From contig JAZRXB010000247.1 of assembly GCA_045600005.1 (NCBI GenBank), positions 51,070 to 115,069 on the forward strand: DNA of 64,000 nt, in the 5' to 3' direction. Below the pieces are notes generated by a model. The model was not told the origin of the DNA. It did not search any database and worked only from the letters and a program-made list of their open reading frames with translations. Positions 38,589 to 64,000 of the stretch are shown in pieces (positions within the stretch are counted from its first letter, which is position 1; each line of letters starts with the position of its first letter). The translations under genes and the position numbers were made by a program. Origin of the DNA: Eubacteriales bacterium (GTDB lineage Bacteria > Bacillota > Clostridia > Oscillospirales > CAG-272).

Positions 38589-39218
38589 TTATCTGACCAG
38601 TCTGAATTCGCCGAACATTTCGGGACGGTGGAAATCGGGTGCGGGCGTGTCGATGGGCGCCCACGAGCTGTACGGTTCGACCGCATGGTCGCCGCCGCAC
38701 TTATAGATGTTTCCCTTGAAAACGGTTTCGGGCGTGATCCTGTCCAGTCCAAACAGGCGGAGCAGTACGGCTTCCGGAACGAACTCGAACAGCTCCCATG
38801 TTTCGGCGGTTTTTTTCACCGTGACCGGGAACGGCTCGACGCCGAGATCGACGATCGAAACGCGCCCGTTCCGCTCAACGCCGAAGCCGATGAGCGTGGT
38901 CGGGTCGGAGTTGCATTCGATGTTGACGTAGCCGTTGTCCGGCTTGCCGGGCGCGTGCATGGTGAAGAAAAATTCCATACAGCTGTCAAGATAGACCGGC
39001 TCGTTGTGCTTGTGGTAACGGGAGACGGGGTCTGCTTCGGCGCAGAACAGGTGGATGTACAGTCCGGCTTTTTTGTTTTTTGTGTCGGCATAGACGATCT
39101 GCGCATAGGTTTCCGGTTTGTAGTCGGTCCCCCAGAGATGGTTTTCGAGACGCGCTTTTCCGACGGCGCTCCAGTCGCCCGGAACGTCGGCGGCGATCAT
39201 GACCTGATAGCTTTTCAT
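38589..39218 (-). CDS. carbohydrate-binding family 9-like (DOMON-like) protein, name uncertain
   Basis: About 209 aa. The C-terminal WAPIDTPAPDFHRPEMFGEF resembles the CBM9-like family motif as I recall it. Start taken at MKSYQVMI. Confidence 0.35.
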   Translation of the reverse strand: MKSYQVMIAADVPGDWSAVGKARLENHLWGTDYKPETYAQIVYADTKNKKAGLYIHLFCAEADPVSRYHKHNEPVYLDSCMEFFFTMHAPGKPDNGYVNIECNSDPTTLIGFGVERNGRVSIVDLGVEPFPVTVKKTAETWELFEFVPEAVLLRLFGLDRITPETVFKGNIYKCGGDHAVEPYSSWAPIDTPAPDFHRPEMFGEFRLVR

Positions 39219-39348
39219 GACGTGATTCCTCCGTGTTTTTCGACAGCCGGTCGGATTGACAGCCGACCGTTTTTTTCTATTATACAACATTTCCGTGCCG
39301 GATGCAACCGGACGGAGAAAATTCGTCAGATTTTTTTCCGAAAAGGTG

Positions 39349-45988: not shown

Positions 45989-47668
45989 CTATTTGATTTC
46001 AAAGGTTTCCTTTTTGTAGTCGACCGTGACGGAGGTGCCGTTGGAATAGGTGGTGCGGAATACGCCGGGCGCGATCTCCTCGTGGTCGTCCATGAACGAG
46101 AAGCGGACGTCGGACAGCGACTCATAGTCGTCGCTCATCACTCTGATCTTTTCGGCGCTGTCGCGGAGCTGTTCGTCCGTGTCGCAGAGGAAGTCCTCTC
46201 GGCCCATCCAGTTGTTGTTCGATGCGAAGTTTGCGTAGTAACAGATCAGCGGACGGCCGCCGTACTCGAAATATTTCAGGCGGTTTTTCACACTCTTTGC
46301 CGTGTAGTTGAGCGTGAAGGTCGAGCTGTTGTACAGGATAATGCCGTGGTAGATCAGTTCCCAGAACGGCACGACCGCGTCGCAGAGCGGGATGGTGTCT
46401 TCGCTGCCGATCTTGAACGAGATGTACATACAGTAATCGAGGTCGGACGCGGCGAAGTCGAAGCCGGACTCGGACGAGAAGCCGCCGAAGGTCTTTCTGG
46501 CGAGCTTCATGGTCTTGCGGTACCATTCGCCCGATTCGGCGCGGTTCAGCGGATGCTTCGGGTCGTAGCATTTCAGAAGCGGCAGGATCGTGATGACGTC
46601 AATGTAGTGAATGCCCTCGAACCCGAGCGCGGCGAGCTTCGGCTGATTGACCGTCTCAAAGCGTTCGTACTGTCTCTGCGGACAGATCTTGTGCGGACGT
46701 CCGCCCGACCAGCAGTAGGGACGAAGATGCAGTCCGCCGTCCTTGTTTTTGAGCAGGTATTCCTCGTCGAAGCAGTCGGCGATGGTGTAAGCGCCGGTCG
46801 CGTCGTCGTGGCAGACGATGCCGTAGCCGTCTTCCTTGACATGGGAGATCAGCGCGCGCAGACGTTCCTCACCGCCCAGTCTCGGATCCGGCGGGAAGAT
46901 CTGCGGGAAGCGTCCGTCGTGTCCGCCGTAGTTCCAGCCGACCAGACAGAATTCCGCGCCGGGAATGCCCTGACGTCTGAATTCATCGGCGATATCGCCC
47001 ACGCGGTCAAAGGTGCAGGCGACGTGCATGGGCGGTTCGGTTTCGGGCGTCTGGTACTCAACCGGGCTCGGCGCGGGTTTCCAGCCCTGACGGACGCGGA
47101 CAGCGATCGAATCGGCGCTCTTTTTCAGGCGCGGGTCGGCGGCTGTGCGCTCGGCGAGCGGGACGCATCCGCCGCGCGTCAGCTGGAAAGCGCGGTAGCA
47201 GCGCGCCATGGCGGGATAGCCGCCGTCCTCAAGCCCGTGCAGCTCGACGCGGATGTCCTCATACGCGGCGTCGCCGTCGAGCATGAAGCGCGGGAAGCAG
47301 GAGTAAACGCCATCCTTTACAGAGATGATGGTGACGTGATCGGGACGCATCCCGGTGACGATGGCAAGCGTTCCGGCTTTGCCGGTGTTCATGCCGTAGC
47401 AGCCGATGAACGGCGTACCGCGGTCGACCACGGCGTCCTCACGCTGGGTGAAACGGGTCAGCACCGTGCCGGTCGTGCCGCCGCCGGTTAAGAACCAGCC
47501 CTCGTCTCCTGCCTTCGCAGTGAAACAGTCGTACAGGAAATCGACATAACGGATGCCCTCGCCCAGCTCTTCCTTTTTCAGATAAGCGGTGAGAACGCCG
47601 TTCTCCGCCGCAGTACAGACGTCGAGCGTTTTGGTCTGTCCGTTTTCAAATATCAGTGTTGCTTTCAA
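45989..47668 (-). CDS. uncharacterised 559-aa cytoplasmic protein, glycoside-hydrolase-like (name uncertain)
   Basis: TTG start 7 nt after GGAGGA. Blocks VGWNYGGHDGRFPQIFPPD, GFEGIHYIDVIT and FSSESGFDFAASDLDY suggest a TIM-barrel sugar enzyme. No signal peptide. Confidence 0.35.
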   Translation of the reverse strand: MKATLIFENGQTKTLDVCTAAENGVLTAYLKKEELGEGIRYVDFLYDCFTAKAGDEGWFLTGGGTTGTVLTRFTQREDAVVDRGTPFIGCYGMNTGKAGTLAIVTGMRPDHVTIISVKDGVYSCFPRFMLDGDAAYEDIRVELHGLEDGGYPAMARCYRAFQLTRGGCVPLAERTAADPRLKKSADSIAVRVRQGWKPAPSPVEYQTPETEPPMHVACTFDRVGDIADEFRRQGIPGAEFCLVGWNYGGHDGRFPQIFPPDPRLGGEERLRALISHVKEDGYGIVCHDDATGAYTIADCFDEEYLLKNKDGGLHLRPYCWSGGRPHKICPQRQYERFETVNQPKLAALGFEGIHYIDVITILPLLKCYDPKHPLNRAESGEWYRKTMKLARKTFGGFSSESGFDFAASDLDYCMYISFKIGSEDTIPLCDAVVPFWELIYHGIILYNSSTFTLNYTAKSVKNRLKYFEYGGRPLICYYANFASNNNWMGREDFLCDTDEQLRDSAEKIRVMSDDYESLSDVRFSFMDDHEEIAPGVFRTTYSNGTSVTVDYKKETFEIK

Positions 47669-48070: not shown

Positions 48071-48106
48071 GCAATATCATATTATGATATCATTTAACGA
48101 TATATT
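48071..48106 (+). repeat. left copy of a direct repeat of about 35 bp bracketing the CocE/NonD gene
   Basis: The core ATGATATCATTTAACGATATA (48084-48104) matches ATGATATCGTATAACGATATA (49736-49756) at 19 of 21 positions, with further similarity about 13 nt upstream. It contains three (G/A)ATAT(C/A) cores spaced 13 nt apart. Confidence 0.85.
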
Positions 48107-49706
48107 CGGATGCTTCGCACGGAACGCGGAGCGAGGAGGCGTCGAGAAGGATCGTGTTGCGCGCGGTCTTCGCGGTCGTCTGCTCGGAGAACAGCCCGCG
48201 GTTGTTCGTGTGGGGAACGTACAGACCATATGCCGAGGACGACACGTCGATGCGCAACCGTTCGCCCTTTTTCACCAGAAAAGCGTGTTCGTCGAAACGG
48301 AAGGTCAGCTCGACCTCGCTGCCGGGAACATAGGCTTTGTCGAAGTTCGAGATCTGCTGAATGTCGTCGCGCAGACCGAGCGCGCCTTCCTCCTTCACAA
48401 GGCTGACGCGCAGGTAGAAGCAGGTGTCCTCGCAGTCCGAGCGGACGCGGAGAGAGGCGGTCATACGCCCTTTGACAAAGACGTCCTTTTCAAACGGCTC
48501 GCTGAAAAACGAGCGGATATCGTACCGGGAATCCGGTCTGTCCTGCCATGCCGTACCGCCGAAGTTGCAGGAAAGACCGCCCTTGAACGATGCGGGCGCG
48601 TAGGGATTGTAGGTGTATGTGACCTCTCCCGTTCCGAACGGTACGACGCGCGTTTCCTCTCCGTCGGCAAAATCCTCCGTCCGCCAGCCGGGCGCGGGCT
48701 GACCGTCCGTGCGGTCGAACAGGCGGTAATACGTGACCCTGCCGGGCGCGAAGGGGAAATCCCCGTTTCTGCCGGCGGCTTTTTCACGGATCGCGTCGAA
48801 CCAGCGTCTCGCGTAGTTCGGGAACGCTTCGCTCATCACGCCGTTTTCAAAGACGACCGGCTGACCGTCCGGTCTGCCCGAATGCTGATAGGGATGGACC
48901 GCCAGCGCACAGTGTGCGCGGGTCTTGGGGTCCATGCTGTTCCACATATCGAAAACGCCGCCGGTATAAATGTCGTAAAAGCCGGTGGTCAGCAGGATCG
49001 GGCATTTCGCGCTTTTCACCGCGTTGTGCGCTTCCGCGCCGCCGAAATGGGTCGTCCAGAAGGGATCGTCCCGGTCAGGATGGCGGAAGGTTTCGTCAAG
49101 ATCGGGCGAAGGCTCGCCGAAGACCGTCTCCGAAAAGCCGGAGAGCGGCAGCATCCGGAACGTATCGGCCGCACAGGCTTTCTGCGGCATGGTCTTTTTC
49201 TTGTACATCCCGACGTACCAGTTCCCGTGCAGAGCCGATTTGAAGAAACCGTTTCGATAAACGACATTGTACCGCTCGCAGTCCTGAACGTCGAACACCG
49301 CGCCCTTGATATCGTCCGCGAACGGCGCGGCGACGTAGAAGACGGATGACGTATAGCTTCCGCCGTTCAGGTACAGCTCACCGCCGTAAAAGGGCTGGCG
49401 GCGGATCCAGTCGAACAGGGCGAGCGTATCCTCGCGCTCATTGATGTAGGGAATGCAGTCGCCCGTGCTGTGCCCGCGTCCGCGGCAGTGCTGACTGACG
49501 ACGGCATAGCCGTGATCGTTCCATCCTCTCGCGCCGTTCAGCGCGTCTGAGAGAAGCTCCCGGTCGGTCTTGGCTTCGGCGGCGTCCACATAAGGGCTTC
49601 GGAAGACGACGACCGGAAAGGAACCGTTTCCTTCCGGAAGGGAGACGGTCGTGAACAGCTCCGCGCCGTCCACGCTGACATATGCGGTAAAACCGGTCTG
49701 GCTCAT
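48090..49706 (-). CDS. CocE/NonD-family (S15 X-Pro dipeptidyl-peptidase-like) alpha/beta hydrolase
   Basis: FPVVVFRSPY, GYAVVSQHCRGRGHSTG and LNGGSYTS (nucleophile elbow), plus a large C-terminal beta-sandwich part. Confidence 0.7.
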   Translation of the reverse strand: MSQTGFTAYVSVDGAELFTTVSLPEGNGSFPVVVFRSPYVDAAEAKTDRELLSDALNGARGWNDHGYAVVSQHCRGRGHSTGDCIPYINEREDTLALFDWIRRQPFYGGELYLNGGSYTSSVFYVAAPFADDIKGAVFDVQDCERYNVVYRNGFFKSALHGNWYVGMYKKKTMPQKACAADTFRMLPLSGFSETVFGEPSPDLDETFRHPDRDDPFWTTHFGGAEAHNAVKSAKCPILLTTGFYDIYTGGVFDMWNSMDPKTRAHCALAVHPYQHSGRPDGQPVVFENGVMSEAFPNYARRWFDAIREKAAGRNGDFPFAPGRVTYYRLFDRTDGQPAPGWRTEDFADGEETRVVPFGTGEVTYTYNPYAPASFKGGLSCNFGGTAWQDRPDSRYDIRSFFSEPFEKDVFVKGRMTASLRVRSDCEDTCFYLRVSLVKEEGALGLRDDIQQISNFDKAYVPGSEVELTFRFDEHAFLVKKGERLRIDVSSSAYGLYVPHTNNRGLFSEQTTAKTARNTILLDASSLRVPCEASEYIVK

Positions 49707-52253: not shown

Positions 52254-53594
52254 TCAGAACCGCAGCTCGGCGAACGAACCGGCGGGAAGCGTCAGCTTTC
52301 CGTCACGGACATTCAGACCGGTCGGCGAGAAGGTATAAATGCTGTCAAGAAGGATGACCTCCGCGCGGTCCGCGTCCGCACCGGTCACGTCAAGCGTCAG
52401 CTCGGCGGGCGAACCGGACGGATTCGAGACGAGCAGCAGCTTTCTGCCGTCTCCGACCGCGCCGCCGACGTAAACGCCTTCGCCGCCGCAGTCCGTTTCG
52501 ATCTCGTTTTCCAGCCGGTAAAGGTGGTCGAACGCGAGGAACGCGAAATAGGTCGGCAGCGGTCTCAGCCCTTCGCCGTCGAACATTCCGGCGTAGTCGC
52601 TCGGAACGACGCGCGCGTCGTAGAAGGTCATGAGCGACGTGCGGGTCTTCTGCATCGTCAGCATCATGGCGAGATTCTTCGCGGCGGCAAGCGGCGTGCG
52701 GCGCTTTTCAAAGCCGATGGCGCAGTTCCATTCGTCCAGAATGTCCTCGACCTCGCCGAAGCCGTACTTTTCCAGTACGCGGCGGCAGTAGGCGGCGCGC
52801 TCAGCCGTTTCGTCGGGCTGACCGTAGCTGTGCCACGAGAAGAAATCGAGCGGACCCTTATGCTCGTCGGACGAGATGTAGGCGAGAAAATCGTGGAAAA
52901 AGTCGATCCAGTGCTGAGCGTGCGTCTCGTAGGGAAGCGTGCGGATGCCGGTGAGGTCCTTGTCCTGCTCCCATGCGTAGAAGCCGCAGGCGGCATAGCC
53001 TCCGACCTTGATCGTGTCGCCGAAGCAGTTCTTCAAATGGTTCGCCGTGACCTCGTACAGACGGAAATATTCCTCCTGTGTGCCGAGGAAGCACGCGCCG
53101 CCGTGAAGCGTTTTCTCGCCCTCCGGCTCGTTCCAGATCTCCCAGTACCGGATGCCCATATGATAACCGTCCGCCCAGCCCTCGTTGTAGTGCCGGACGA
53201 TATGCTCGCAGATCCGCGCCCATTTCCCGGGATCGGCGGGCGGGTAAATGCGGTAGGCCTTCATGCGGTAATTGTTCTCGATCGTCTCGCCAAACCGGAA
53301 AAACGGCTCGACGCCCTGCGCCGTCAGCGAGGTCAGAAGCCAGTCGGTGAAGGTGAAATCGTAAGACGCGGGATCGTTTTCGTCTGCGTCAAAGTCGCGG
53401 AAGATGTTGTGGATATCGGCGAACCGTGCGCCGCCGTAGGCGCCGCCCACATCGTGCGTGCGGGAATAGGGAATGCCCGCTTCGCCGAGGTAATGGAACA
53501 TACCGTTGTCATTTCCGCGTAAGGGCGCCTGACCGACGCCGTGGAGCGGTCTGATCTTTCCCGTGATATGCGTGAAATCCGCGCGGATGAGCAT
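52254..53594 (-). CDS. clan GH-A glycoside hydrolase, GH39-like (second)
   Basis: YWEIWNEPE (acid/base) and EDILDEWNCA (nucleophile). GGGAGG SD. No signal peptide. Confidence 0.5.
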   Translation of the reverse strand: MLIRADFTHITGKIRPLHGVGQAPLRGNDNGMFHYLGEAGIPYSRTHDVGGAYGGARFADIHNIFRDFDADENDPASYDFTFTDWLLTSLTAQGVEPFFRFGETIENNYRMKAYRIYPPADPGKWARICEHIVRHYNEGWADGYHMGIRYWEIWNEPEGEKTLHGGACFLGTQEEYFRLYEVTANHLKNCFGDTIKVGGYAACGFYAWEQDKDLTGIRTLPYETHAQHWIDFFHDFLAYISSDEHKGPLDFFSWHSYGQPDETAERAAYCRRVLEKYGFGEVEDILDEWNCAIGFEKRRTPLAAAKNLAMMLTMQKTRTSLMTFYDARVVPSDYAGMFDGEGLRPLPTYFAFLAFDHLYRLENEIETDCGGEGVYVGGAVGDGRKLLLVSNPSGSPAELTLDVTGADADRAEVILLDSIYTFSPTGLNVRDGKLTLPAGSFAELRF

Positions 53595-53663: not shown

Positions 53664-55430
53664 TCAGTCGTAAAGCGGACCGTAAGCTGCGCAGGCGCGG
53701 TAATCGGCGTCCTCGAGATTGGCAGTGCCGAAAGCGGACCATGCGTGCGGACGGTAGACCTTGCACGGGCAGACGTTGTGCATCGAGATCGGGATGCGGA
53801 GCATCGAAGCCAGCGTGATGATGTCGGCACCGACGTGACCGTAGGTGAACGCGCCGTGGTTTGCGCCCCAGTTTGCCATGACGCTGTACACATCCTTGAA
53901 CGCGCCTTCGCCGGTGAGCGTGGGTGCGAACCAGATGGACGGCCAGGTCGGGTCGGTGCGGTCAAGCAGCGTGTGCGTGACTTCATCGGGAAGCTCGACG
54001 GTGTAGCCCTCGGCGATCTGGATGACCGGACCGAGCTTGTCGACGAGATTGACGCGGACCATCGTGACCGGCATTTCGCCCTTGCTGATATACTGGCTGG
54101 AGAATCCGCCGCCGCGGAAGTAGAGCTTGTTTGCGGGAGCCCACTTCGTTTCGGCGAGCATCGCGTTCATGTCCTCGTCGGTGACGTCCCACCACTTCTT
54201 CATGATCGACCTGCCGTCGGCGTCCTTCGACGCACCGTTGCCGTCGAGCGCGGAAGCGCCGGAGTTCAGCAGATGGATGAACCCGCCGGCAGCCTTGCCG
54301 GAGACTTCATAGCCGGCGACGCGTTTCACGGCGTCGGGACTCCAGTAGGTGCGCACGTCGGAGAAGACCGACGCCTGATTCGTGACGAGGTTCAGAAGCA
54401 GCATGGCGAGACCGTTCAGCGTGTCGTTTTCGGTAGCGAGGATGAACGGAGCGCGCTTGCCGTTCCAGTCGAAGCTCGTGTTGAGGATGGCTTCGGTGAA
54501 GTCGGCGTTCGGCTTGTAGTCGGTCCACTGACGCTGACCCTGAAAGCCGCCGAAGATCGCGTTGCGTCCGCAGGATTCCTCGACCCAGCCCATTTCGGCG
54601 AGCTTTTCGTTGCCGAGCATGATATCGCGGACGATCAGGGTCATCTTGGCGACGAACTCCCATTCCTTTTCATCCTGTTCGGGCGTGTTGACCAGCTCGC
54701 CCGCGTTGCACTCGCGTCCCTTTTCGCAGTTCTTCTTGATCCACGCGAGTTCCTTCTCGTATTCGTCGTGATCGTAGATGCCGAGGTCGATGCGGCGGAG
54801 GATCTCCACCATGTCGACCCACTCAGCGCGCACGCCGAGGTACTTCTGCATGAAATTACCGTCAAGGAACGAGCCGCCGATACCCATGGCGACCGAACCG
54901 AGCGCACAGTATGCCTTGTCGCGCATCATGCCGACCGCGATGGCGCAGCGTGCGAAGCGGAGGAGCTTTTCGGAAACGTCGTCCGGGATGGAGTGGTCGT
55001 CCATGTCCTGTACGTCGTGACCGTAGATGGCGAACGCCGGGAGACCTCTCTGCGCGTGAGCCGCCATGGCTGCCGCGAGATAGACCGCGCCGGGACGCTC
55101 GGTGCCGTTGAAGCCCCAGACCGCCTTGACGGTCAGAGGATCGAGGTCCATCGTTTCGCTGCCGTAGCACCAGCAGGGCGTGACGGACAGCGTGCCGACA
55201 ACATTGAAATTTTTGAATTTTTCGGCGCACATACCGGCTTCCCTGCCGCCGCCGATGGTGGTGTCCGCGATGACGCATTCGACCGGAGTGCCGTCCGGAT
55301 AGAAGCAGTTCTTTTCGATCAGTTCCTTAGCGGCGAGCGCCATGCCCATGGTCTGGTCTTCGAGACCTTCGCGGATGCCCTTGCGTCTGCCGTCGATGAT
55401 GGGACGGATGCCGATTACAGGTTTGCTCAT
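53664..55430 (-). CDS. fucI: L-fucose isomerase
   Basis: About 588 aa. MSKPVIGIRPIIDGRRKGIREGLEDQTM, SVTPCWCYGSETMD and the C-terminal GANHGAFTYGHVGADIITLASMLRIP are typical FucI blocks. GGAGA SD 7 nt before the ATG at 55430. Confidence 0.9.
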   Translation of the reverse strand: MSKPVIGIRPIIDGRRKGIREGLEDQTMGMALAAKELIEKNCFYPDGTPVECVIADTTIGGGREAGMCAEKFKNFNVVGTLSVTPCWCYGSETMDLDPLTVKAVWGFNGTERPGAVYLAAAMAAHAQRGLPAFAIYGHDVQDMDDHSIPDDVSEKLLRFARCAIAVGMMRDKAYCALGSVAMGIGGSFLDGNFMQKYLGVRAEWVDMVEILRRIDLGIYDHDEYEKELAWIKKNCEKGRECNAGELVNTPEQDEKEWEFVAKMTLIVRDIMLGNEKLAEMGWVEESCGRNAIFGGFQGQRQWTDYKPNADFTEAILNTSFDWNGKRAPFILATENDTLNGLAMLLLNLVTNQASVFSDVRTYWSPDAVKRVAGYEVSGKAAGGFIHLLNSGASALDGNGASKDADGRSIMKKWWDVTDEDMNAMLAETKWAPANKLYFRGGGFSSQYISKGEMPVTMVRVNLVDKLGPVIQIAEGYTVELPDEVTHTLLDRTDPTWPSIWFAPTLTGEGAFKDVYSVMANWGANHGAFTYGHVGADIITLASMLRIPISMHNVCPCKVYRPHAWSAFGTANLEDADYRACAAYGPLYD

Positions 55431-55519
55431 GATCATTTCTCCAATCTGATTTTTCAAAATGAGGAATTTCGTTTTCCGAACCGCCGTCCGGAAAAAATGA
55501 TAACGCCTTATACGGTTAT

Positions 55520-55548
55520 AGTATAGCATGAGGTTTGCATATGGTCAA
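55520..55548 (-). promoter_or_regulatory. sigma-A-type promoter of fucI, TTGACC-17-TATACT (minus strand)
   Basis: The reverse complement of 55520-55548 reads TTGACC-ATATGCAAACCTCATGC-TATACT. Confidence 0.55.
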
Positions 55549-55633: not shown

Positions 55634-55779
55634 GTGAATGTACAGGAAAAACCTCTCCGGGATATGCTGATCAGACCGGGCTTCCGGCGGAAAAAATCCT
55701 GTCATTGATTGGATTTTTTCAAAGCGGTCTTATTTGGCGTTCCCTGACCGGCTGAATATTCACAAAAGGAGAACTGATC

Positions 55780-57234
55780 ATGGCAAACAGCAAAATGCGC
55801 GTTTCCACCCTGCTTCTGGCTGCTCTGACGGCTGCGCAGACGCTCGCATCCTGCGGCGGCTCCGGCGGCACGACCGACACCCAGACGCCCGTTACCGGCG
55901 CGCCCGAAGAAAACAAACCCGTTTACTTCACCGACGCTCTCGGCGATATCAGCTTTGAGGGCGAGACCTTCACGCTCTATCGCGGCTGCCCGGTCGGCTA
56001 CTATATCATGGAGGAGGAGACCGGCGATATTCTGGACGACTCCATCTTCCTTCGCAACCGTCTCGTGGAGGAACGTCTCGGCATCACCCTCGACTACGTT
56101 GAATGCGCATTCAAGAGCGACGGCGGCAGTCAGGCGGAAGCGACCTCGACGATTCAGAGCTTCATCATGGCGGGCGACGACACCAACGATATTTATATCC
56201 ACGTTCAGCATACCGGTATGCCGGGTCTGATCGCGCAGGGCTGCTTCGTCAACTGGCGCACGGTCCCGAACCTCGATCTGACGCAGGACTACTGGTACCA
56301 GAGATGCCTTGACGATATCAACTATTACGACAAGGTGTTCGCCATGACCGGCGCGTACAACCTGACCTCTCTGAACGGCGCGAACTGCCTGTACTTCAAT
56401 AAGAACATCTGCGACGATCTCAAGATGGACTATCCTTACCAGATGGTTCTGGACGGCAAGTGGGTGTACGATAAATTCTACGACATGAGCAAGGCTGCCA
56501 CCATCGACGTCAACGGCGACGGCAAGATCGACGTGGACAACGACCAGATCGGCTACTACGGCTGGGGCTACGAACAGTATCCCGGCTTCTTCATGGGCAT
56601 GGGCGGCGACGTCGTTCTCAAGAAGGCGGACGGTTCTCCCGAGCTGAACATCAACAACGACCGCACGGTCGAGCTGATCGAGAAAATGAACAGGTTCTTC
56701 GCGCTGGAAGGCTCGAAGGTCGAATGGACCACCTACGGCATCATTCAGCCGAAGTTTGAAGCGGGCGAGGTCCTGTTCTATCACACCGGTCTGAATGCCG
56801 CTACCGGTCTGCGCGACATGGAAGACGACTTCGGCTTCATCCCGTATCCGAAGCTAAACGAGGCGCAGGACGGCTACCGCTGCCGCGTTCAGAACACGAC
56901 CTGCTTAACCTATATCCCTGTCACCAACAATCACCTTGACTTCACGGGCGCAGTCCTTGAAGTCCTCGCATCCTGCTCGTTCAATACTGTCGTTCCGGCA
57001 TTCTTCGATACGGTTCTTACCGTCAAGTCTTCCCGTGACACCGAGTCCGAGCAGATGATCCCGGTCATCCGCGACGCCTGCGCGTTCAACGACGAAGCCG
57101 CTACCGGCTTCTCGGTCAGAAACGCAGTCGACTCCGGCGGACTTGCCTCCTACTGGGCAGGCGTCGAAGCGACCGTTAAGGACGCCGTTCAGAAGAACAT
57201 CATCGACGTTTACGGTCCGGATTCCAAATTCTGA
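55780..57234 (+). CDS. extracellular solute-binding lipoprotein (large sugar-type ABC SBP), paralog 1
   Basis: Lipobox TLASCGGSG and the typical IMAGDDTNDIY block. An EF-hand/dockerin-like loop DVNGDGKIDVDND. No permease or ATPase gene nearby. Confidence 0.7.
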   Translation: MANSKMRVSTLLLAALTAAQTLASCGGSGGTTDTQTPVTGAPEENKPVYFTDALGDISFEGETFTLYRGCPVGYYIMEEETGDILDDSIFLRNRLVEERLGITLDYVECAFKSDGGSQAEATSTIQSFIMAGDDTNDIYIHVQHTGMPGLIAQGCFVNWRTVPNLDLTQDYWYQRCLDDINYYDKVFAMTGAYNLTSLNGANCLYFNKNICDDLKMDYPYQMVLDGKWVYDKFYDMSKAATIDVNGDGKIDVDNDQIGYYGWGYEQYPGFFMGMGGDVVLKKADGSPELNINNDRTVELIEKMNRFFALEGSKVEWTTYGIIQPKFEAGEVLFYHTGLNAATGLRDMEDDFGFIPYPKLNEAQDGYRCRVQNTTCLTYIPVTNNHLDFTGAVLEVLASCSFNTVVPAFFDTVLTVKSSRDTESEQMIPVIRDACAFNDEAATGFSVRNAVDSGGLASYWAGVEATVKDAVQKNIIDVYGPDSKF

Positions 57235-57477: not shown

Positions 57478-57559
57478 ATCCTTGTGTAAAGAGATTTGTG
57501 CTTCACACAGATTTCCGGTTTTCGCAAATACGAAAATAATTCAGAAAGGAAAGTTAATC

Positions 57560-59014
57560 ATGGCAAACAGCAAAATGCGCGTTTCCACGCTGCTTCTGGC
57601 TGCTCTGATGGCAGCGCAGACGCTCGCATCCTGCGGCGGCTCCGGCAGCACGACTGACACTCAGGCTCCTGTGACCAATGCACCCGAAGAAGACAAGCCT
57701 GTCTACTTCACCGACAGTCTCGGCGACATCCGTTTTGACGGCGAGACCTTCACACTCTACCGCGGCTATCCGACCGGCTCCTATATCATGGAAGAAGAAA
57801 CCGGCGATATCCTCGACGACTCCATCTTCCTGCGCAACCGTCTCGTTGAAGAGCGTCTTGGCATCACCCTCGACTACGTTGAGTGCAACTTCAAGACCGA
57901 CGGTTCCAGCCAGTCTGAAGCAACCTCCACGATCTCGAGCTTCATCATGGCAGGCGACGACACCAACGACGTTTATGTCCACGTTCAGCACACCGGTATG
58001 CCGGGTCTGATCGCACAGGGCTGCTTCGTCAACTGGCGCACGGTTCCGAACCTCGACCTGTCTCAGGATTACTGGTATCAGAGATGCCTTGACGACATCA
58101 ACTACTACGACAAGGTATTCGCCATGACCGGCGCTTACAACCTGTCCTCCCTGACCGGCGCAAACTGCCTGTACTTCAACAAGAACATCTGCGACGACCT
58201 CAAGATGGACTATCCTTATCAGGATGTTCTGGACGGCAAGTGGATCTATGACAAGTTCTATGACATGACCAAGGCTGCTACCATCGACGTCAACGGCGAC
58301 GGCAAGATCGACGTTGACAACGACCAGCTCGGTTACTTCGGCTGGGGCTACGAACAGTATCCCGGCTTCTTCATGGGCATGGGCGGCGACTCCGTTCTGA
58401 AGAAGGCTGACGGTTCTCCCGAACTGAACATCAACAACGACCGCACCATCGAGCTTGTCGAAAAGATGAACAAGTTCTTCCAGCTGGAAGGCTCGAAGGT
58501 CGAATGGACCACCTACGGCATCATTCAGCCGAAGTTCTCGGCAGGTGAGTGCCTGTTCTACCACACCGGTCTGTCCGCTGCTACCAGTCTGCGCGACATG
58601 GAAGACGACTTCGGCTTCATTCCGTATCCGAAGCTCAACGAGGCTCAGGAAGGCTATCGCTGCCGTGTTCAGAACACGACCTGCTTAACCTATATCCCGG
58701 TCACCAACAATCACCTTGACTTCACGGGCGCTGTCCTTGAAGTCCTCGCATCCTGCTCGTACAACACTGTCGTTCCGGCATTCTTCGATACCGTTCTTAC
58801 CGTCAAGTCTTCCCGTGATACCGAGTCCGAGCTGATGGTTCCGGTCATCCGCGAAGCCTGCGCATTCAATGACGAAGCGATCAGCGGCTTTGCCATCAGA
58901 AACGCTGTCGACTCCGGCGGACTTGCTTCCTACTGGGCAGGTGTTGAAAACACCGTTAAGGATTCCCTCCAGAAGAACATCATCGACGTTTACGGTCCGG
59001 ATTCCAAGCTCTGA
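57560..59014 (+). CDS. extracellular solute-binding lipoprotein, paralog 2 (tandem duplicate of 55780-57234)
   Basis: Same length class and collinear sequence: identical MANSKMRVSTLLLAAL...TLASCGGSG, with most blocks conserved to the C-terminal IIDVYGPDSK. Confidence 0.7.
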   Translation: MANSKMRVSTLLLAALMAAQTLASCGGSGSTTDTQAPVTNAPEEDKPVYFTDSLGDIRFDGETFTLYRGYPTGSYIMEEETGDILDDSIFLRNRLVEERLGITLDYVECNFKTDGSSQSEATSTISSFIMAGDDTNDVYVHVQHTGMPGLIAQGCFVNWRTVPNLDLSQDYWYQRCLDDINYYDKVFAMTGAYNLSSLTGANCLYFNKNICDDLKMDYPYQDVLDGKWIYDKFYDMTKAATIDVNGDGKIDVDNDQLGYFGWGYEQYPGFFMGMGGDSVLKKADGSPELNINNDRTIELVEKMNKFFQLEGSKVEWTTYGIIQPKFSAGECLFYHTGLSAATSLRDMEDDFGFIPYPKLNEAQEGYRCRVQNTTCLTYIPVTNNHLDFTGAVLEVLASCSYNTVVPAFFDTVLTVKSSRDTESELMVPVIREACAFNDEAISGFAIRNAVDSGGLASYWAGVENTVKDSLQKNIIDVYGPDSKL

Positions 59015-59043
59015 TTTCCTTCGGTTCTGAACAAATCCGAATA

Positions 59044-59081
59044 AAAAACGGGCTGACGCAGCTGCGGCAGTCGGTTTTTTT
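59044..59081 (+). terminator. terminator after SBP2
   Basis: An A-run, an imperfect 11-bp stem (2 mismatches), then TTTTTTT at 59075-59081. Confidence 0.55.
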
Positions 59082-59144
59082 GCGCGATGGACGCACTTAC
59101 AGCCTGCATACATGAGAATAGGACGACAATTTACGAAAAAAACA

Positions 59145-59172
59145 TTGACATTATCAAAATAACTGCTATAAT
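59145..59172 (+). promoter_or_regulatory. sigma-A-type promoter, TTGACA-16-TATAAT (GRE operon)
   Basis: TTGACA at 59145-59150 and TATAAT at 59167-59172, followed by AATGTACAT at 59175-59183. Confidence 0.6.
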
Positions 59173-59226
59173 ATAATGTACATAGTCCTGCCGTCCGAGA
59201 CGGCGGAAGCAGAAAGGAAAACTGCC

Positions 59227-61197
59227 ATGTCAGAAATTCTTCTCAATTACATTCTGGAAAAGAAGCATCACGCTTTCCGTACCGACTATACCGAAAATCT
59301 TTCCGCCCTGTACAGCGCACAGGGACTCTCTCCCGAAGAGCGCATGGCGGACCGCTTCGAGCGCCTGACGAAGGCGCAGGTCCCGCACATCCTGCCCGAC
59401 GAACAGATCGTCTTCGTCCGCACGACGAAGCAGACCCCCGACTGCTTTACCGAGGATGAGTGGAAAAAGATCAAGTCCGAGCATTTTATCCACGAGCTTG
59501 GCTACAACTCCAACCTTTCCCCCGACTTCGAGCGTGTGATCGCGTCGGGTCTTCTCGCCTGCCGCGAGACTGCCGACGAGTACGGCAGGCGCGCCATCGA
59601 CAACCTGATCGCGCTGGCCGACCGCTACAAGGCGGAGGCTGAGCGTGTCGGACGCACCGACGTCGCGGACGTTCTGACCCGTGTGCCGCGCTATGCGCCG
59701 ACCTCCTTCCGCGAAGCGCTCCAGTTCTTCCGCATCCTCCACTTCGCGCTCTGGCTCGAAGGCAACTACCACAACACCTGCGGCCGGTTCGACAAGTATA
59801 TGTACCCCTACTTCAAGGCCGACATGGACAAGGGCGTGCTGAACGAGGAATCCGCGCTCGCGCTCATCGAGGACTTCTTCCTCTCCTTCAACAAGGACAG
59901 CGACCTGTACGTCGGCGTTCAGCAGGGCGACAACGGTCAGTCGATGGTCCTCGGCGGCATCGACGAAAACGGGAACGACTGCTTCACCGAGCTGTCGAAG
60001 CTCTGCCTCGTAGCCAGCCGCAACCTCAAGATGATCGACCCGAAGATCAACCTCCGCGTCTCGAAGAAAACTCCGATCGAACAGTATCTGCTCGGCACCG
60101 AGCTGACCCGCGCCGGTCTGGGCTTCCCGCAGTATTCCAACGACGACGTGGTCATCCCCGCGCTGATCGCAAAGGGCTACGCGCCGGAGGACGCGCCGAA
60201 CTACGTGCTCGCGGCGTGCTGGGAGTTCATCATTCCGAAGTGCGGCGGCGACGTCGCCAACATCGGTGCCATGTCCTATCCGAAGGCGGTCGACACCGTG
60301 CTGCACGGAAAGTTCGTCGACTGCAGGACCTTCGATGAGGTGATGGAAGCGGTCAACGCCGAGATCGTCTCGATGTGCGATAAGATCACGGCGAACGTCC
60401 GGAATCTCTGGTTCGTTCCCTCGCCCTTCATGAACGTTATGATGGACGACATCAAATACCGCAACTTCGGCGTACACGGCACGGGCATCTCCACCGCCGC
60501 CGACTCGCTCGCCGCGATCAAGAAATACGTCTTTGACGAAAAGCTCGTCAGCGCGAAGGAAATGCTCGACGCGGTGAACGACAATTTCGAGCATACGCCC
60601 GATCTGCTCAACCGTCTGAGAAACGAAGCGCCCAAGATGGGCAACAACGACGATTACGTCGACGGGATCTCGGTCGCTCTGCTCGATATGTTCGGCAAGG
60701 CGCTCGAAGGCAGAAAGAACTGCTGCGGCGGCATCTGGCGCGCCGGCACCGGCTCCGCAATGTACTATCTGTGGCACGCAAATGAGCTGGGCGCATCTCC
60801 CGACGGCAGACGCTGCGGCGAAGCCTTCGGCACGAACTTCTCGGTCAGCCTGTTCGCAAAGATCGCCGGACCGGTCTCGGTCATCAAGTCCTTCACCAAG
60901 CAGCATTTTGCGAACGCCATCAACGGCGGTCCTCTGACGCTCGAATTCCACAACAGCGTCTTCAAGGGCGAGGATTCGATCGCGAAGGTCGCAGGGCTCG
61001 TCAAATACTATATCGACAACGGCGGACATCAGCTCCAGCTCAACGCCGTCAACCTTGAGACCATGAAGGACGCGCAGCTGCATCCCGAAAACCACACCCG
61101 CCTTGTCGTGAGGATCTGGGGCTGGTCGGCTTACTTTGTCGAGCTTGACAAGGAATTCCAGGATCACGTCATCGCGCGTCAGGAATATTCCATCTGA
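59227..61197 (+). CDS. glycyl radical enzyme, PFL2/eliminase-like, unusually short (656 aa)
   Basis: C-terminal glycyl motif LVVRIWGWSAYFVELDKEFQDHVIARQEY. The Cys loop LAACWEF aligns with GCVEP. DGRRCGEAFG and FDKYMYPYF family blocks are present. SD GAAAGGA precedes the ATG at 59227. Confidence 0.88.
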   Translation: MSEILLNYILEKKHHAFRTDYTENLSALYSAQGLSPEERMADRFERLTKAQVPHILPDEQIVFVRTTKQTPDCFTEDEWKKIKSEHFIHELGYNSNLSPDFERVIASGLLACRETADEYGRRAIDNLIALADRYKAEAERVGRTDVADVLTRVPRYAPTSFREALQFFRILHFALWLEGNYHNTCGRFDKYMYPYFKADMDKGVLNEESALALIEDFFLSFNKDSDLYVGVQQGDNGQSMVLGGIDENGNDCFTELSKLCLVASRNLKMIDPKINLRVSKKTPIEQYLLGTELTRAGLGFPQYSNDDVVIPALIAKGYAPEDAPNYVLAACWEFIIPKCGGDVANIGAMSYPKAVDTVLHGKFVDCRTFDEVMEAVNAEIVSMCDKITANVRNLWFVPSPFMNVMMDDIKYRNFGVHGTGISTAADSLAAIKKYVFDEKLVSAKEMLDAVNDNFEHTPDLLNRLRNEAPKMGNNDDYVDGISVALLDMFGKALEGRKNCCGGIWRAGTGSAMYYLWHANELGASPDGRRCGEAFGTNFSVSLFAKIAGPVSVIKSFTKQHFANAINGGPLTLEFHNSVFKGEDSIAKVAGLVKYYIDNGGHQLQLNAVNLETMKDAQLHPENHTRLVVRIWGWSAYFVELDKEFQDHVIARQEYSI

Positions 61198-61202
61198 CCG
61201 CC

Positions 61203-62018
61203 ATGACCGGAACGGTATTCGACATCAAGGAGTTTTCGGTGCATGACGGGCCCGGCGCACGGACGACCGTGTTCGTCAAGGGCTGCCCGCTTTCCTGCAA
61301 ATGGTGTCACAATCCGGAAGGGCTTTCCCCGAAGCCCGAGCTGATGGTCAAAACCGCCCGCTGCCGTCACTGCGGGCGGTGCATGAAGCCCTGTGATCAT
61401 CCCGAATGCCAGTCGTTCGGACGCTGCCTGCACGCCTGCCCGGACGGGCTGATCTCGGTGGCGGGGAAGCTCTGGGAGACCGGAGACCTCGCGGCGTATT
61501 TATTGAAAAACGCCGATTTCATGAACGCCTGCGGCGGCGGCGTGACGATCTCCGGCGGCGAGCCGACCATGCAGGCGGAATTCGTCGCGGAGCTTCTCGA
61601 TAAGCTGTCCTCCGTCCACCGCGCGGTACAGACCTGCGGCTATACGACCGGCGAACGCTTCATGAGCATCGTCGACCGGGTGGAGCTGGTCATGATGGAC
61701 ATCAAGCTCGCCGACCCGGCGGAGCATAAAAGGTGGTGCGGCGTGGACAACGCTCCCATCCTTGAAAATTTCAGACGTCTGAAAGCAAGCGGCAGAGAGC
61801 ATATCATCCGCGTCCCGCTGATCCCCGATATCACCGACACGCGCGAAAATCTCGCCGCCGTCTCGAAGATCGTCGGAAACAGCCGGGTCGAGCTGCTGCC
61901 CTACAACAATCTCGCGGGCGCGAAATACGCGAGCGTCGGCAGAGTCTATACGCTGCCCGACGCGAAGAACCGCGAGATCGACCTCTCGCTGTTTGAAAAC
62001 GCCGCGCTGCGCGCGTGA
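61203..62018 (+). CDS. glycyl-radical enzyme activating protein (radical SAM)
   Basis: FSVHDGPGARTTVFVKGCPLSCKWCHNPE (CX3CX2C), a ferredoxin-like Cys-rich insert (CRHCGRCMKPC...CLHACP) and GGVTISGGEP. It starts 5 nt after the GRE stop. Confidence 0.9.
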   Translation: MTGTVFDIKEFSVHDGPGARTTVFVKGCPLSCKWCHNPEGLSPKPELMVKTARCRHCGRCMKPCDHPECQSFGRCLHACPDGLISVAGKLWETGDLAAYLLKNADFMNACGGGVTISGGEPTMQAEFVAELLDKLSSVHRAVQTCGYTTGERFMSIVDRVELVMMDIKLADPAEHKRWCGVDNAPILENFRRLKASGREHIIRVPLIPDITDTRENLAAVSKIVGNSRVELLPYNNLAGAKYASVGRVYTLPDAKNREIDLSLFENAALRA

Positions 62019-62076
62019 ACGTTATTGTGTGCTGTCACAAATGATAAACCGTTTCTGTGAAGGAAAGGAACACGAC

Positions 62077-64000
62077 ATGGATTTCATGAAAAAGATCAGA
62101 CCGTGGTTTATGCTGGCGGACGACGCGGCCAAGCACCGCTTCGAGTCCTCGTTCGGCGGGAACCGGTTTGAAAGCCACCTTGCAAACGCTTCCCTGACGG
62201 TCGACACGACCGAATACGACGGTCTGTACGCCGTCAGCGTCTCCGCTTCGGTGAAGGGAAGATTCGCAATCGACACGGCGATCGGGATCGAGCTTCCGCT
62301 CGAAGACGTGACCGGCTGCATGGCGGACTATCAGAGCTGTATGCACTGGTGCAAGCCCGCGTTCTCTGCCGATCCGGCGAAGATCCCGGCGCGCACACAG
62401 GCGCTTCTGTATCAGAAGAAGGACGGACGCTACGGCTTTATCCTGCCCGTGGTCGGCGAGCTTTACAAGGCTCTGCTTCGCGGCGGCGACTATGCGCCCG
62501 AGCTTATCCTGTTCTCGAACGTTTCGACGCTTTCCGAATGTAAGACGCTCGCCTTCGTCTGCGGCGAAAGCGGCGAGCCGTATCGTTTAATGAACGACTG
62601 CGCGCGCCTTGCCATGAAGCTCCTTGACAACGGCGCATCCGTCCGCGAAGAACGCCGCTATCCCGAAATTCTCGAATATCTCGGCTGGTGCTCGTGGGAC
62701 GCGCTCGAGATCCGCGTCAGTACGGCGGGACTTCTCGAAAAGTGCGAGGAGATCAAGGCGAAAAACATTCCCTTCAAGTGGGCGATCATCGACGATATGT
62801 GGGCGGAATGCGACAGGCTGCGCGAGATCCCGGACGACCTCAACCGCGCGACCGGTATGTTCGGCGTCATGCACTCGTCGAAGATCCGCAGCTTTGAAGC
62901 CGACCCGAAGCGCTTCCCCGGCGGTCTGAAGGACTGCCTTGACAAGATGAAGGCATACGGTCTGAAGATCGGAATGTGGCATCCGACCACCGGATACTGG
63001 GCAGGCGTCGACCCCGAATCCGAGCTTGCCGAAAAGTACCGCGATCTGCTGATCGAAACGCCGAACGGCAGACTCATGCCCTCACCCGAAAAGGACAAGG
63101 CGTTCCTCTTTTACAGCGCGTTCCACGATTTCTTAAAATCCTGCGGGACCGACTTCGTGAAGATCGACAATCAGGGCTATCTGCTCGAAAACTACAAGGA
63201 CGTCGTTCCGCTCGGTAAGGCAGCGCGGAACATCCAACGCGCGATCTGCTCGTCCGTGGGCGCTCATTTTGACAACGATATCATCAACTGCATGGGCATG
63301 GCGAGCGAGAATATGTTCAACCGCACGTCCGGCGCGGTCTCCCGCTGCTCCGGCGACTTCCAGCCCGAAAACCGCGAGTGGTTCATCCGCCACATCCTCG
63401 CCTGTTCGTATAACTCCCTGATTCAGGGAATGTTCTACTGGAGCGACTGGGATATGTGGTGGTCGGACGACGAGCAGGCGAAGAAGAACAGCGTTCTGCG
63501 CGCCATTTCCGGCGGACCGATCTACGTCAGCGACAAGATCGGCAGAAGCCGTCCCGAGATCTTCGCGCCGCTCTGCTGGTCCGACGGACGCATCCTGCGC
63601 TGCAAGGACCCGGCTGTCCCGACGAAGGACTGCCTCGTCGAAGACCCCGAGACCTCGAAGAAGGTCTTCAAGGTCTTCAACACCTACGAAAACGGCGGCG
63701 TGATCGCGGCGTTCAACCTCGACAAGGCGGAGAACACGCCGGTCAGCGGCACGATCGGCGCGTCCGACCTCGGCGCGGAGTATGACGAATACGTCGTTTA
63801 CGAGCATTTCTCCGGCAAAGCGGTCGTTCTGAAGAAGGGCGAAGTCCTGTCGCTGACGCTCGAAAACCACGACGATTTCCGTCTCTACACCATCGTTCCG
63901 GTGACGGACGGCATTGCGATGCTCGGCATGATCGACAAATTCAACTCCCCGATGGGCGTCACGGCGCAGTTCGACAACGTGTGGTCGCTTTACGAGGGCG
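62077..64000 (+). CDS. GH36 raffinose-synthase/Sip1-family alpha-galactosidase-like protein; the 3' end runs off the window
   Basis: Absent from the ORF track (no stop in the window). My own translation from the ATG at 62077 gives MDFMKKIRPWFML...YLGWCSWDALE...TDFVKIDNQG...RCSGDFQP...YWSDWDMWWS, which are the family hallmark blocks. Confidence 0.8.
   Translation, partial: MDFMKKIRPWFMLADDAAKHRFESSFGGNRFESHLANASLTVDTTEYDGLYAVSVSASVKGRFAIDTAIGIELPLEDVTGCMADYQSCMHWCKPAFSADPAKIPARTQALLYQKKDGRYGFILPVVGELYKALLRGGDYAPELILFSNVSTLSECKTLAFVCGESGEPYRLMNDCARLAMKLLDNGASVREERRYPEILEYLGWCSWDALEIRVSTAGLLEKCEEIKAKNIPFKWAIIDDMWAECDRLREIPDDLNRATGMFGVMHSSKIRSFEADPKRFPGGLKDCLDKMKAYGLKIGMWHPTTGYWAGVDPESELAEKYRDLLIETPNGRLMPSPEKDKAFLFYSAFHDFLKSCGTDFVKIDNQGYLLENYKDVVPLGKAARNIQRAICSSVGAHFDNDIINCMGMASENMFNRTSGAVSRCSGDFQPENREWFIRHILACSYNSLIQGMFYWSDWDMWWSDDEQAKKNSVLRAISGGPIYVSDKIGRSRPEIFAPLCWSDGRILRCKDPAVPTKDCLVEDPETSKKVFKVFNTYENGGVIAAFNLDKAENTPVSGTIGASDLGAEYDEYVVYEHFSGKAVVLKKGEVLSLTLENHDDFRLYTIVPVTDGIAMLGMIDKFNSPMGVTAQFDNVWSLYEG

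Follow-up and report, generated by a model that had tools for sequence, protein, structure and literature searches.

A compact clade of glycyl radical enzymes with remodelled catalytic loops and a probable role in sugar C–O bond cleavage

We analysed a 64,000-nucleotide stretch of a Eubacteriales genome (contig JAZRXB010000247.1, positions 51,070 to 115,069; hereafter the window), in which an unusually short glycyl radical enzyme (GRE; 59227–61197) is encoded in one operon, under its own promoter, with its activase (61203–62018) and a glycosidase-like gene of glycoside hydrolase family 36 (GH36; 62077 onward). That GRE and activase form a real operon is virtually certain, and the operon is genuine, intact and well-expressed-looking. 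The compact enzyme and its homologues very probably constitute a distinct, uncharacterised clade. The explanation that we favour overall, and which from the sequence appears reasonably probable, is that of a radical C–O-cleaving enzyme of the Cys-X-Glu (CXE) type with a free, unphosphorylated sugar as its substrate, L-arabinose and D-galactose being the probable candidates. The fold, the cofactor logic and the activase are standard, but the architecture, both catalytic loops, the lost general acid and the free-sugar setting are not.

Pfam searches with the GRE identified a PFL-like domain (PF02901, 7e-82) and a Gly_radical domain (PF01228, 1.7e-17), and the motifs VRIWGWSAYFVELDKEFQDHVIAR and LAACWEFIIPKCGG are both found in its coding sequence. 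Its best sequence match is the B12-independent glycerol dehydratase (GD) of Clostridium butyricum (PDB 1r8w; 2e-73, about 23–25% identity), with pyruvate formate-lyase (PFL; 1h16) reaching only 4e-18. HMMER aligns residues 90–654 of the GRE to residues 187–785 of GD, placing C331/E333 on C433/E435 and RIWG632WS on RVAG763YS. From 26 clade members we built an AlphaFold2 model (pLDDT 92.2, pTM 0.92) and compared it with known structures using Foldseek, which gave query-normalised TM-scores (TMq) of 0.88 to 1r8w and 0.85–0.89 over GD, CutC, propanediol dehydratase, HypD and PflD. The enzyme has the hallmarks of the superfamily, namely the barrel with its C-terminal Gly_radical domain, the radical Gly and catalytic Cys, and a radical S-adenosylmethionine (SAM) activase; it also has an invariant C331-W332-E333, as expected of the CXE class. 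The preliminary description of this DNA had called the protein eliminase-like, unusually short and altered in its Cys loop, and all three points are supported. Nevertheless, the protein falls below every NCBIfam GRE cut-off: its best match, HypD (NF043068), gives 284 bits against a cut-off of 1100, the PFL2/glycerol dehydratase subfamily (TIGR01774) 281 against 678, and PFL (TIGR01255) 71.9 against 994. Publicly, its homologues are named only 'pyruvate formate-lyase'.

When the window GRE was searched exhaustively with HMMER against 1.84 billion representatives, dozens of 50%-identity clusters, 640–709 aa in length, were returned; they align from about residue 5 through to the C-terminus, contain AACWEF as well as RVWGWS, and have identities down to about 34%. 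Next below stands a wider group of short GREs (680–745 aa) with RVWGFS and CWE[P/I/T], while the canonical PFL2-type enzymes of 780–810 aa (GCVE, RVAGYS) do not appear until scores have dropped to about 270 bits, at 33% identity. We define the compact clade by a length of 640–710 aa, A-A-C-W-E-F, R-[VI]-W-G-W-S, an Asn in the column of GD His164, QQGDNGQS and NGGPLTxE, all of which are present in the window GRE and near-invariant across 310 aligned members of roughly 35–100% identity. Invariant or nearly so in these 310 sequences are N96, H182, R187, D189, D224, Y228, Q232, D235, N236, G237, Q238, A329-A-C-W-E-F334, P337, D342, N345, H417, R505, G507, G509, Y514, N566-G-G-P-x-T-x-E573, Q604, N606 and R629-x-W-G-W-S634. 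Because the active-site signature is so constant, the clade of the window GRE (the query clade) and a sister subclade, 44–48% identical and bearing the same signature, probably perform the same chemistry.

A pattern scan of species representatives placed the compact clade in at least 596 GTDB species, its carriers including Acutalibacteraceae, Oscillospiraceae, Acetatifactor and Faecalimonas as well as Ructibacterium gallinarum DSM 107454, which is in culture, and 1xD8-48, an isolate from mouse; metagenomes of gut, rumen, termite, bioreactor and sediment samples yielded at least 522 stretches in a scan for the sister subclade. The expectation that ~650-aa proteins with an ACWEF loop form a subfamily of their own was therefore upheld by the number of clusters, the species count and the shared signature. 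According to a June 2026 review of the GRE superfamily, whole clades are still without an assigned function (PMC13450708). None of the characterised PFL-like GREs listed in that review resembles the compact family, and we found nothing on it in the literature on GREs together with carbohydrate or glycosidase topics.

To describe how the enzyme has been shortened, we used a multiple sequence alignment (MSA) of the compact family with E. coli PflD and YbiW and canonical representatives. The first N-terminal helix is kept, and the 107–143 missing residues are all internal, mostly in the N-terminal third, with the largest block corresponding to the helical region ahead of barrel strand 1 (Table 1). 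The protein is indeed shorter than the characterised eliminases, as first described, but the accompanying idea that the missing part is N-terminal does not hold, and the MSA rules out an N-terminal truncation. The N-terminal helices of GREs form a conserved dimer interface (PMC13450708), and the oligomeric state of the compact GRE may differ from that of canonical GREs.

The active site, too, differs from that of the canonical eliminases at several positions (Table 1). None of the residues His164, Tyr339, Tyr640 and Asp447 of GD and propanediol dehydratase is retained in the window GRE, while the CXE pair is intact throughout the family. Many polar residues are conserved in the pocket, and the alignments reveal no basic cluster of the kind with which IslA and HpsG hold a sulfonate (PMC13450708). 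Judged from these alignments, the pocket is remodelled and probably larger, polar and lined with aromatic residues.

We surveyed the gene neighbourhoods of 88 query-clade and 80 sister-subclade loci by calling and clustering open reading frames (ORFs), annotating representatives and taking Pfam censuses. The only near-universal partner in the query clade is the activase, which adjoins the GRE in 75–81 of the 88 loci and in 70 of the 80 sister-clade loci, where it often lies upstream. An AraC-type regulator, mostly divergent and upstream, accompanies 26 query-clade loci, and a LacI-type regulator nine. A GH36 enzyme of the Raffinose_syn type is present in 19–20 of the 88, abutting the activase in at least ten, so that the recurrence of GH36 next to ACWEF-loop GREs, raised in the preliminary description, is confirmed. 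Other glycosidases in this clade are GH36 melibiase (seven loci), GH4 α-galactosidase (L001–L003), GH127 (three to four loci) and GH51 (four loci), along with GH123, GH42, GH78, GH28 and GDSL esterases. In the sister subclade, a sugar porter of the major facilitator superfamily (MFS) occurs in 29 of 80 loci (TIGR00879, 321 bits against a cut-off of 238; closest model XylE), and a mutarotase of the galactose-1-epimerase family in about 17 (NF008277, 302 bits against 240); GH127, two GH51 arabinofuranosidases, LacI, Raffinose_syn, DUF4867, two class II aldolases and a CUT2 monosaccharide ATP-binding cassette (ABC) system, with an ATPase closest to AraG, were also found there.

No homologue of the bacterial microcompartment (BMC) shell protein BMC-H was detected in the window or in 169 loci with a PduA query, and none appeared in the Pfam censuses, in agreement with the earlier statement that shell genes do not accompany the GRE. 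The fucI gene lies near the GRE in only three to five closely related query-clade loci, on variable strands and with other units in between, and in none of the sister-clade loci; on these grounds we ruled it out as a functional partner.

Some neighbours are rarer. The cupin DUF4867 occurs in five to six query-clade loci, sometimes between GRE and activase; it lies between or beside them in L037 (11999–12649), L074, L049, L054 and two sister-clade loci, and it may assist the GRE pathway as an accessory enzyme. We considered DUF4867 as a known sulfoquinovose isomerase and dropped the idea, as this is the SftX/SqvB family of sulfoquinovose pathways, which the paper concerned only proposes to be tied to ketose metabolism. 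In L051 (6730–7905, Ructibacterium gallinarum) and L090 (2–1123, a metagenome contig), the surroundings of the GRE include a gene for an iron-containing alcohol dehydrogenase; such an enzyme would fit an aldehyde or ketone product. In L057 (7495–9795 and 9953–11992), the compact GRE with its activase and the GH36-like gene is immediately preceded by a canonical-length GRE (766 aa, GCQE, RIGGFS) that has an activase of its own.

Arabinofuranosidases release L-arabinose, and GH36 enzymes release D-galactose. Given these products of the GH127/GH51 and GH36 neighbours, their common denominator would be a free pentose or hexose of the arabino/galacto series, and the mutarotase and monosaccharide porters adjoining the sister-clade enzyme suggest a substrate with a free anomeric centre. 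Together with the pocket changes, the neighbours point to a neutral, unphosphorylated sugar that either is set free by glycosidases encoded nearby or enters the cell as a monosaccharide. Within this picture the parts differ in strength: CXE-type C–O cleavage of a carbohydrate-derived substrate is likely, and identification of that substrate as a free aldose of the L-arabinose/D-galactose type is a tentative proposal. The original suggestion of a sugar-derived small molecule survives in its sugar setting; its link to fucose does not, in view of the fucI distribution, and its diol or polyol substrate is a weak guess beside a whole monosaccharide.

Homology indicates that a glycyl radical forms at Gly632 and is relayed to Cys331: the activase would use SAM and a [4Fe-4S] cluster to place the radical on Gly632, from which it would pass to Cys331 in turnover. 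As the CXE motif implies, the thiyl radical would then take a hydrogen atom from a carbinol carbon of the substrate, Glu333 would deprotonate the hydroxyl of that carbon to give a ketyl radical, an oxygen leaving group on the adjacent (beta) carbon would be expelled, and Cys331-SH would return the hydrogen to the product radical. The same chemistry operates in the GRE 1,2-eliminases and in the sugar isomerases YbiW and PflD (PMC13450708). On an aldopyranose, abstraction of H1 with loss of the C2 hydroxyl would give a 2-deoxy-aldonolactone, and abstraction of H2 with loss of the C3 hydroxyl a 3-deoxy-2-ulose; alternatively, if H2 abstraction led to cleavage of C1–O5, a ketose would result, as the precedent of YbiW and PflD suggests. 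In place of His164, the leaving group might be protonated by D224, D235, H182, Y228 or E573. L-arabinose or D-galactose, or a close derivative, would be the most likely substrate, and the outcome a redox-neutral dehydration or a ring-opening isomerisation. More speculatively still, and with the odds rather against it, this could be the first GRE to act on a free unphosphorylated aldose (L-arabinose and/or D-galactose, as a mutarotase-supplied anomer) by radical dehydration or ring opening.

Several observations weigh against the free-sugar explanation. Its substrate is read solely from gene neighbourhoods, which vary, with no glycosidase family present in more than about a quarter of the loci; the surveyed loci offer no kinase, aldolase or similarly plain candidate for the next step that regularly accompanies the GRE; and ordinary, non-radical pathways exist for L-arabinose and galactose. 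The enlargement of the pocket comes from alignments rather than coordinates, and the HMMER alignment and the MSA differ in register around residues 180–186. Moreover, since Asn stands in for the general-acid His, the proton for a simple dehydration as in GD would have to come from a different donor.

One alternative is a compact GD or propanediol dehydratase that dehydrates a small diol or polyol, such as glycerol, 1,2-propanediol or a comparable aglycone that a glycosidase has released. GD and propanediol dehydratase are the closest solved structures, the CXE motif is kept, GH36-type enzymes could free glycerol from galactosylglycerol, and the iron-containing alcohol dehydrogenase of L051 and L090 would suit such a product; on the other hand, the changes at GD His164 (Asn), Tyr339 and Tyr640 (both Gly) and in the Asp447 segment (deleted or changed), the TIGR01774 score far below its cut-off, the absence of BMC shell genes and of any recurrent aldehyde or alcohol dehydrogenase in the window and surveyed loci, and the pairing of the sister-clade GRE with sugar-porter and mutarotase genes make this reading improbable. 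We give the same low standing to an enzyme that acts upstream of, or in parallel to, the glycosidase on a glycoside, disaccharide or anhydro-sugar, expelling the aglycone or ring oxygen by radical beta-elimination. YbiW and PflD cleave the ring C–O bond of anhydro-hexitol phosphates by just this CXE chemistry, and query-clade GREs stand in tight association with intracellular enzymes of GH36 and GH4 and with solute-binding proteins (SBPs) of the oligosaccharide type, but the sister-clade mutarotase and monosaccharide transporters imply a free anomeric centre, and so varied a set of glycosidases (GH36, GH4, GH127, GH51, GH123, GH42) fits a shared product better than a shared glycoside.

A dehydratase for hydroxyproline derived from plant extensin or arabinogalactan-protein glycopeptides is far less credible. 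HypD is the best NCBIfam match, GH127 enzymes act on beta-L-arabinofuranosyl-hydroxyproline (HypBA1), and the window contains a gene for an S15 X-Pro dipeptidyl-peptidase (48090–49706, − strand); yet the HypD score is barely apart from those of other eliminase models, and instead of recurrent proC/pyrroline-5-carboxylate reductase or amino-acid transporter genes it is the sugar porter and mutarotase that recur. Least plausible of all is the pyruvate formate-lyase of the public names, which the Pfam PFL-like domain might seem to support: the A-C-W-E loop lacks the adjacent Cys-Cys pair, the TIGR01255 score lies far below its cut-off, and the match to 1h16 is much poorer than that to GD, so this annotation was discarded. 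We retain, as the best overall explanation, radical C–O cleavage of a free, unphosphorylated sugar.

At the level of the DNA, the GRE ORF spans 59176–61197 (+) and cannot be extended upstream because of an in-frame TGA at 59146–59148, as the preliminary description had also concluded. Its proposed start at ATG 59227 stands: it is preceded by an AAAGGA Shine–Dalgarno sequence, and the resulting 656 aa agree with the lengths of homologues (654–662 aa in 120 clusters of 67–100% identity). With the −10 box at 59167–59172, transcription is predicted to start near 59179, and the ATG at 59176 would consequently precede it; an alternative 673-aa form is called in one NCBI record (P0001). A GC-rich hairpin in the 5′ untranslated region (UTR) could serve as an mRNA stabiliser or regulatory element. 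GC hairpins of other sequence occupy the same position before the GRE in L009 and L011. The window genome has 58% GC and a third-position GC content (GC3) near 0.8, and most of its real genes have long antisense shadow ORFs (up to 645–780 aa); these, for example 59230–61167 (−), are artefacts with high first-position GC (GC1) and a high Arg content.

The activase starts 5 nt past the GRE stop codon and, as originally described, combines CX3CX2C with a ferredoxin-like insert (Table 1). The 7-Cys insert is kept in query-clade activases and missing from some sister-clade activases, so that auxiliary-cluster content varies within one GRE clade. Among sister-subclade loci with an MFS and mutarotase setting, the activases of L126, L152 and L161, encoded upstream of the GRE, have no Cys-rich insert and only 4–5 Cys in their first 110 aa. 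In the 58-nt spacer between activase and GH36-like gene (62019–62076), no terminator-like hairpin was found (z +0.18). Since this spacer has no terminator and both upstream SBP genes have promoters and terminators of their own, the transcription unit comprises GRE, activase and GH36-like gene, in line with the co-transcription in a glycan-utilisation setting that had been proposed from the sequence.

Table 1. Features of the GRE operon and its products. Nucleotide positions refer to the window; residue numbers refer to the GRE unless GD is named.
Feature	Position	Strand	Evidence or remark
Terminator hairpin and U-run after SBP2	59043..59082	+	splits solute-binding protein genes from GRE operon
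GRE operon promoter, sigma-70-like	59145..59172	+	TTGACA, 16-nt spacer, TATAAT, extended TG; 12/12 matches
5′UTR hairpin, GC-rich, 8 bp	59188..59206	+	−16.6 kcal/mol, z −2.26; immediately 5′ of Shine–Dalgarno
Compact glycyl radical enzyme, 656 aa	59227..61197	+	PFL-like and Gly_radical domains, AlphaFold2 model, Foldseek
Asn96 codon, column of GD general-acid His164	59512..59514	+	MSA; Asn in 309/310 family sequences
Cys loop A329-A-C331-W-E333-F-I-I-P337 (thiyl Cys, CXE Glu)	60211..60237	+	aligned to G-C433-V-E435-P of 1r8w
Gly loop R629-I-W-G632-W-S634 (glycyl radical site)	61111..61128	+	aligned to RVAGYS of canonical GREs
GRE-activating radical SAM enzyme, 271 aa	61203..62018	+	TIGR02494, 266 bits vs cut-off 174; Pfam Fer4_12 and Radical_SAM
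CX3CX2C (C28, C32, C35), SAM-binding [4Fe-4S] cluster	61284..61307	+	aligned with E. coli PflC, YbiY
Compact 7-Cys ferredoxin-like insert (C54, C57, C60, C64, C69, C75, C79-P)	61362..61442	+	alignment
GH36-type glycosidase (Raffinose_syn / alkaline alpha-galactosidase-like), third operon gene	62077..64000, runs off window	+	PF05691 at 7.7e-66
Internal deletion	after residue 69		5 residues missing
Internal deletion	after residue 73		21 residues missing
Internal deletion	after residue 82		~32 residues missing
Internal deletion	after residue 119		12–20 residues missing
Internal deletion	after residue 142		11 residues missing
Internal deletion	after residue 361		13–17 residues missing
Internal deletion	after residue 389		5 residues missing
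Internal deletion	after residue 409		12 residues missing
GD His164, general acid (His in PflD, YbiW)	Asn96		replaced in window family
GD Tyr339	Gly237		within family motif QQGDNGQS
GD Tyr640	Gly509		in R505-x-G-x-G509
Canonical NGTLxNxK loop			NGGPLTxE in window family
GD Asp447 segment			deleted in window family
Cys-loop flanks Gly, Val, Pro			Ala, Trp, Phe in window family
Gly-loop flanks Ala, Tyr			Trp, Trp in window family

The GH36-type glycosidase is cytoplasmic, and its homologue in L006 matches Arabidopsis RS6 (PDB 7exf) at 3e-56. Upstream of the operon lie twin lipoprotein genes for sugar-type SBPs (55780–57234 and 57557–59014), which share 90% protein and 89% DNA identity, each with its own strong sigma-70-like promoter (55605 and 57449) and terminator hairpin; no ABC permease genes adjoin them in the window. 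The gene at 53664–55529 (−) is fucI (994 bits against a cut-off of 775). Its ORF encodes 621 aa, of which fucI models match from residue 34–36 on, and the L005 and L006 homologues have 588–589 aa; translation probably begins some 33 codons into the ORF. The preliminary description was right that fucI and the twin SBP genes are neighbours of the GRE, but the SBP genes are separate transcription units and fucI is confined to a few close relatives.

The repeat AATGTACA had been taken earlier as a hint of co-regulation. It does occur at 55637 and 59175, each 3–4 nt past a −10 box, and nowhere else in the window; however, at least two copies arose in 8 of 100 shuffles, which makes the hint marginal, and the repeat is present neither in the SBP2 promoter nor upstream of the GRE in L005, L006, L008 and L011. 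We did not uphold it as an operator. Elsewhere in the window, GH39-like (52254–53594, −), GH43-like (37594–38490, +), CBM9 (38589–39290, −) and DUF5696 (45989–47668, −) genes, like the S15 peptidase gene, are interspersed with housekeeping genes (pheT, cysS, an amino-acid ABC system).

GREs carry out difficult anaerobic reactions that are tied to host health, such as the production of trimethylamine, hydrogen sulfide and p-cresol. The compact clade is very widespread in Clostridia of humans, mice, ruminants and bioreactors, is linked through its gene neighbourhoods to the degradation of plant glycans from the diet, and has a sharply defined, strongly conserved active site unlike that of any characterised GRE. 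If its substrate is a free sugar, carbohydrate metabolism would gain a new reaction class and fibre fermentation a new route, and hundreds of gut and rumen Clostridia would have a previously unknown anaerobic entry route for the sugars of arabinogalactan, pectin and extensin. Should the substrate be otherwise, the clade would still be a compact, well-defined target, with two cultured hosts and a 2.8-kb two-gene unit at hand. Unassigned GRE clades are to be expected, but this one is abundant and directly testable, and offers a precise hypothesis.

Compared with known systems, the window GRE stands closest to GD and the other GRE 1,2-eliminases (propanediol dehydratase, CutC, HypD), with which it shares the ten-stranded barrel (TMq 0.85–0.89), the CXE Cys loop and the C-terminal Gly loop, and whose activases are likewise of the TIGR02494 type with a Cys-rich insert. 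It is, however, 110–190 aa shorter, has ACWEF in place of GCVEP and RIWGWS in place of RVAGYS, and carries Asn96 where the general acid is His164 in GD and Asp216 in CutC. Whereas propanediol dehydratase and CutC are encoded alongside microcompartment shell, aldehyde dehydrogenase and phosphotransacylase genes, the window GRE does not share this arrangement and lies in a glycan locus. The wider clade of short GREs (about 680–745 aa), also uncharacterised, has in common with it the Trp before the radical Gly, C-W-E, Asn in the His164 column and several of the deletions, but differs in the Phe after the Gly (RVWGFS), in having G-C or A-C before W-E, and in its greater length, at 33–39% identity.

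The only characterised carbohydrate-acting GREs are YbiW and PflD, which convert 1,5-anhydroglucitol-6-phosphate and 1,5-anhydromannitol-6-phosphate to 1-deoxyfructose-6-phosphate, the CXE pair breaking a sugar C–O bond after abstraction of a carbinol hydrogen (PMC13450708). They share the fold of the window GRE (TMq 0.83–0.88), but at 765–810 aa they keep the GC(V/I)E loop, RVAGYS and the His, which the window GRE does not. Their E. coli loci encode phosphotransferase system (PTS) components, a sugar phosphatase and an aldolase, matching phosphorylated anhydro-sugar substrates; the window family has no recurrent PTS or kinase genes and is accompanied instead by ABC SBPs or MFS sugar porters, mutarotase and glycosidases. 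A further parallel is the bifidobacterial system for arabinogalactan-protein side chains, in which GH36 yields galactose (Gal) or L-arabinopyranose (L-Arap), plus L-arabinose (Ara), from Gal-α-1,3-Ara or Arap-β-1,3-Ara (PMC10688797). The bifidobacterial clusters contain no GRE, the window GH36 belongs to the Raffinose_syn branch and the GH39 match in the window is weak (4.6e-13); the window nevertheless resembles that system, with its GH39, SBP/ABC transporter and intracellular GH36, in combining a GH39-like gene, sugar-type SBPs and a GH36-type enzyme.

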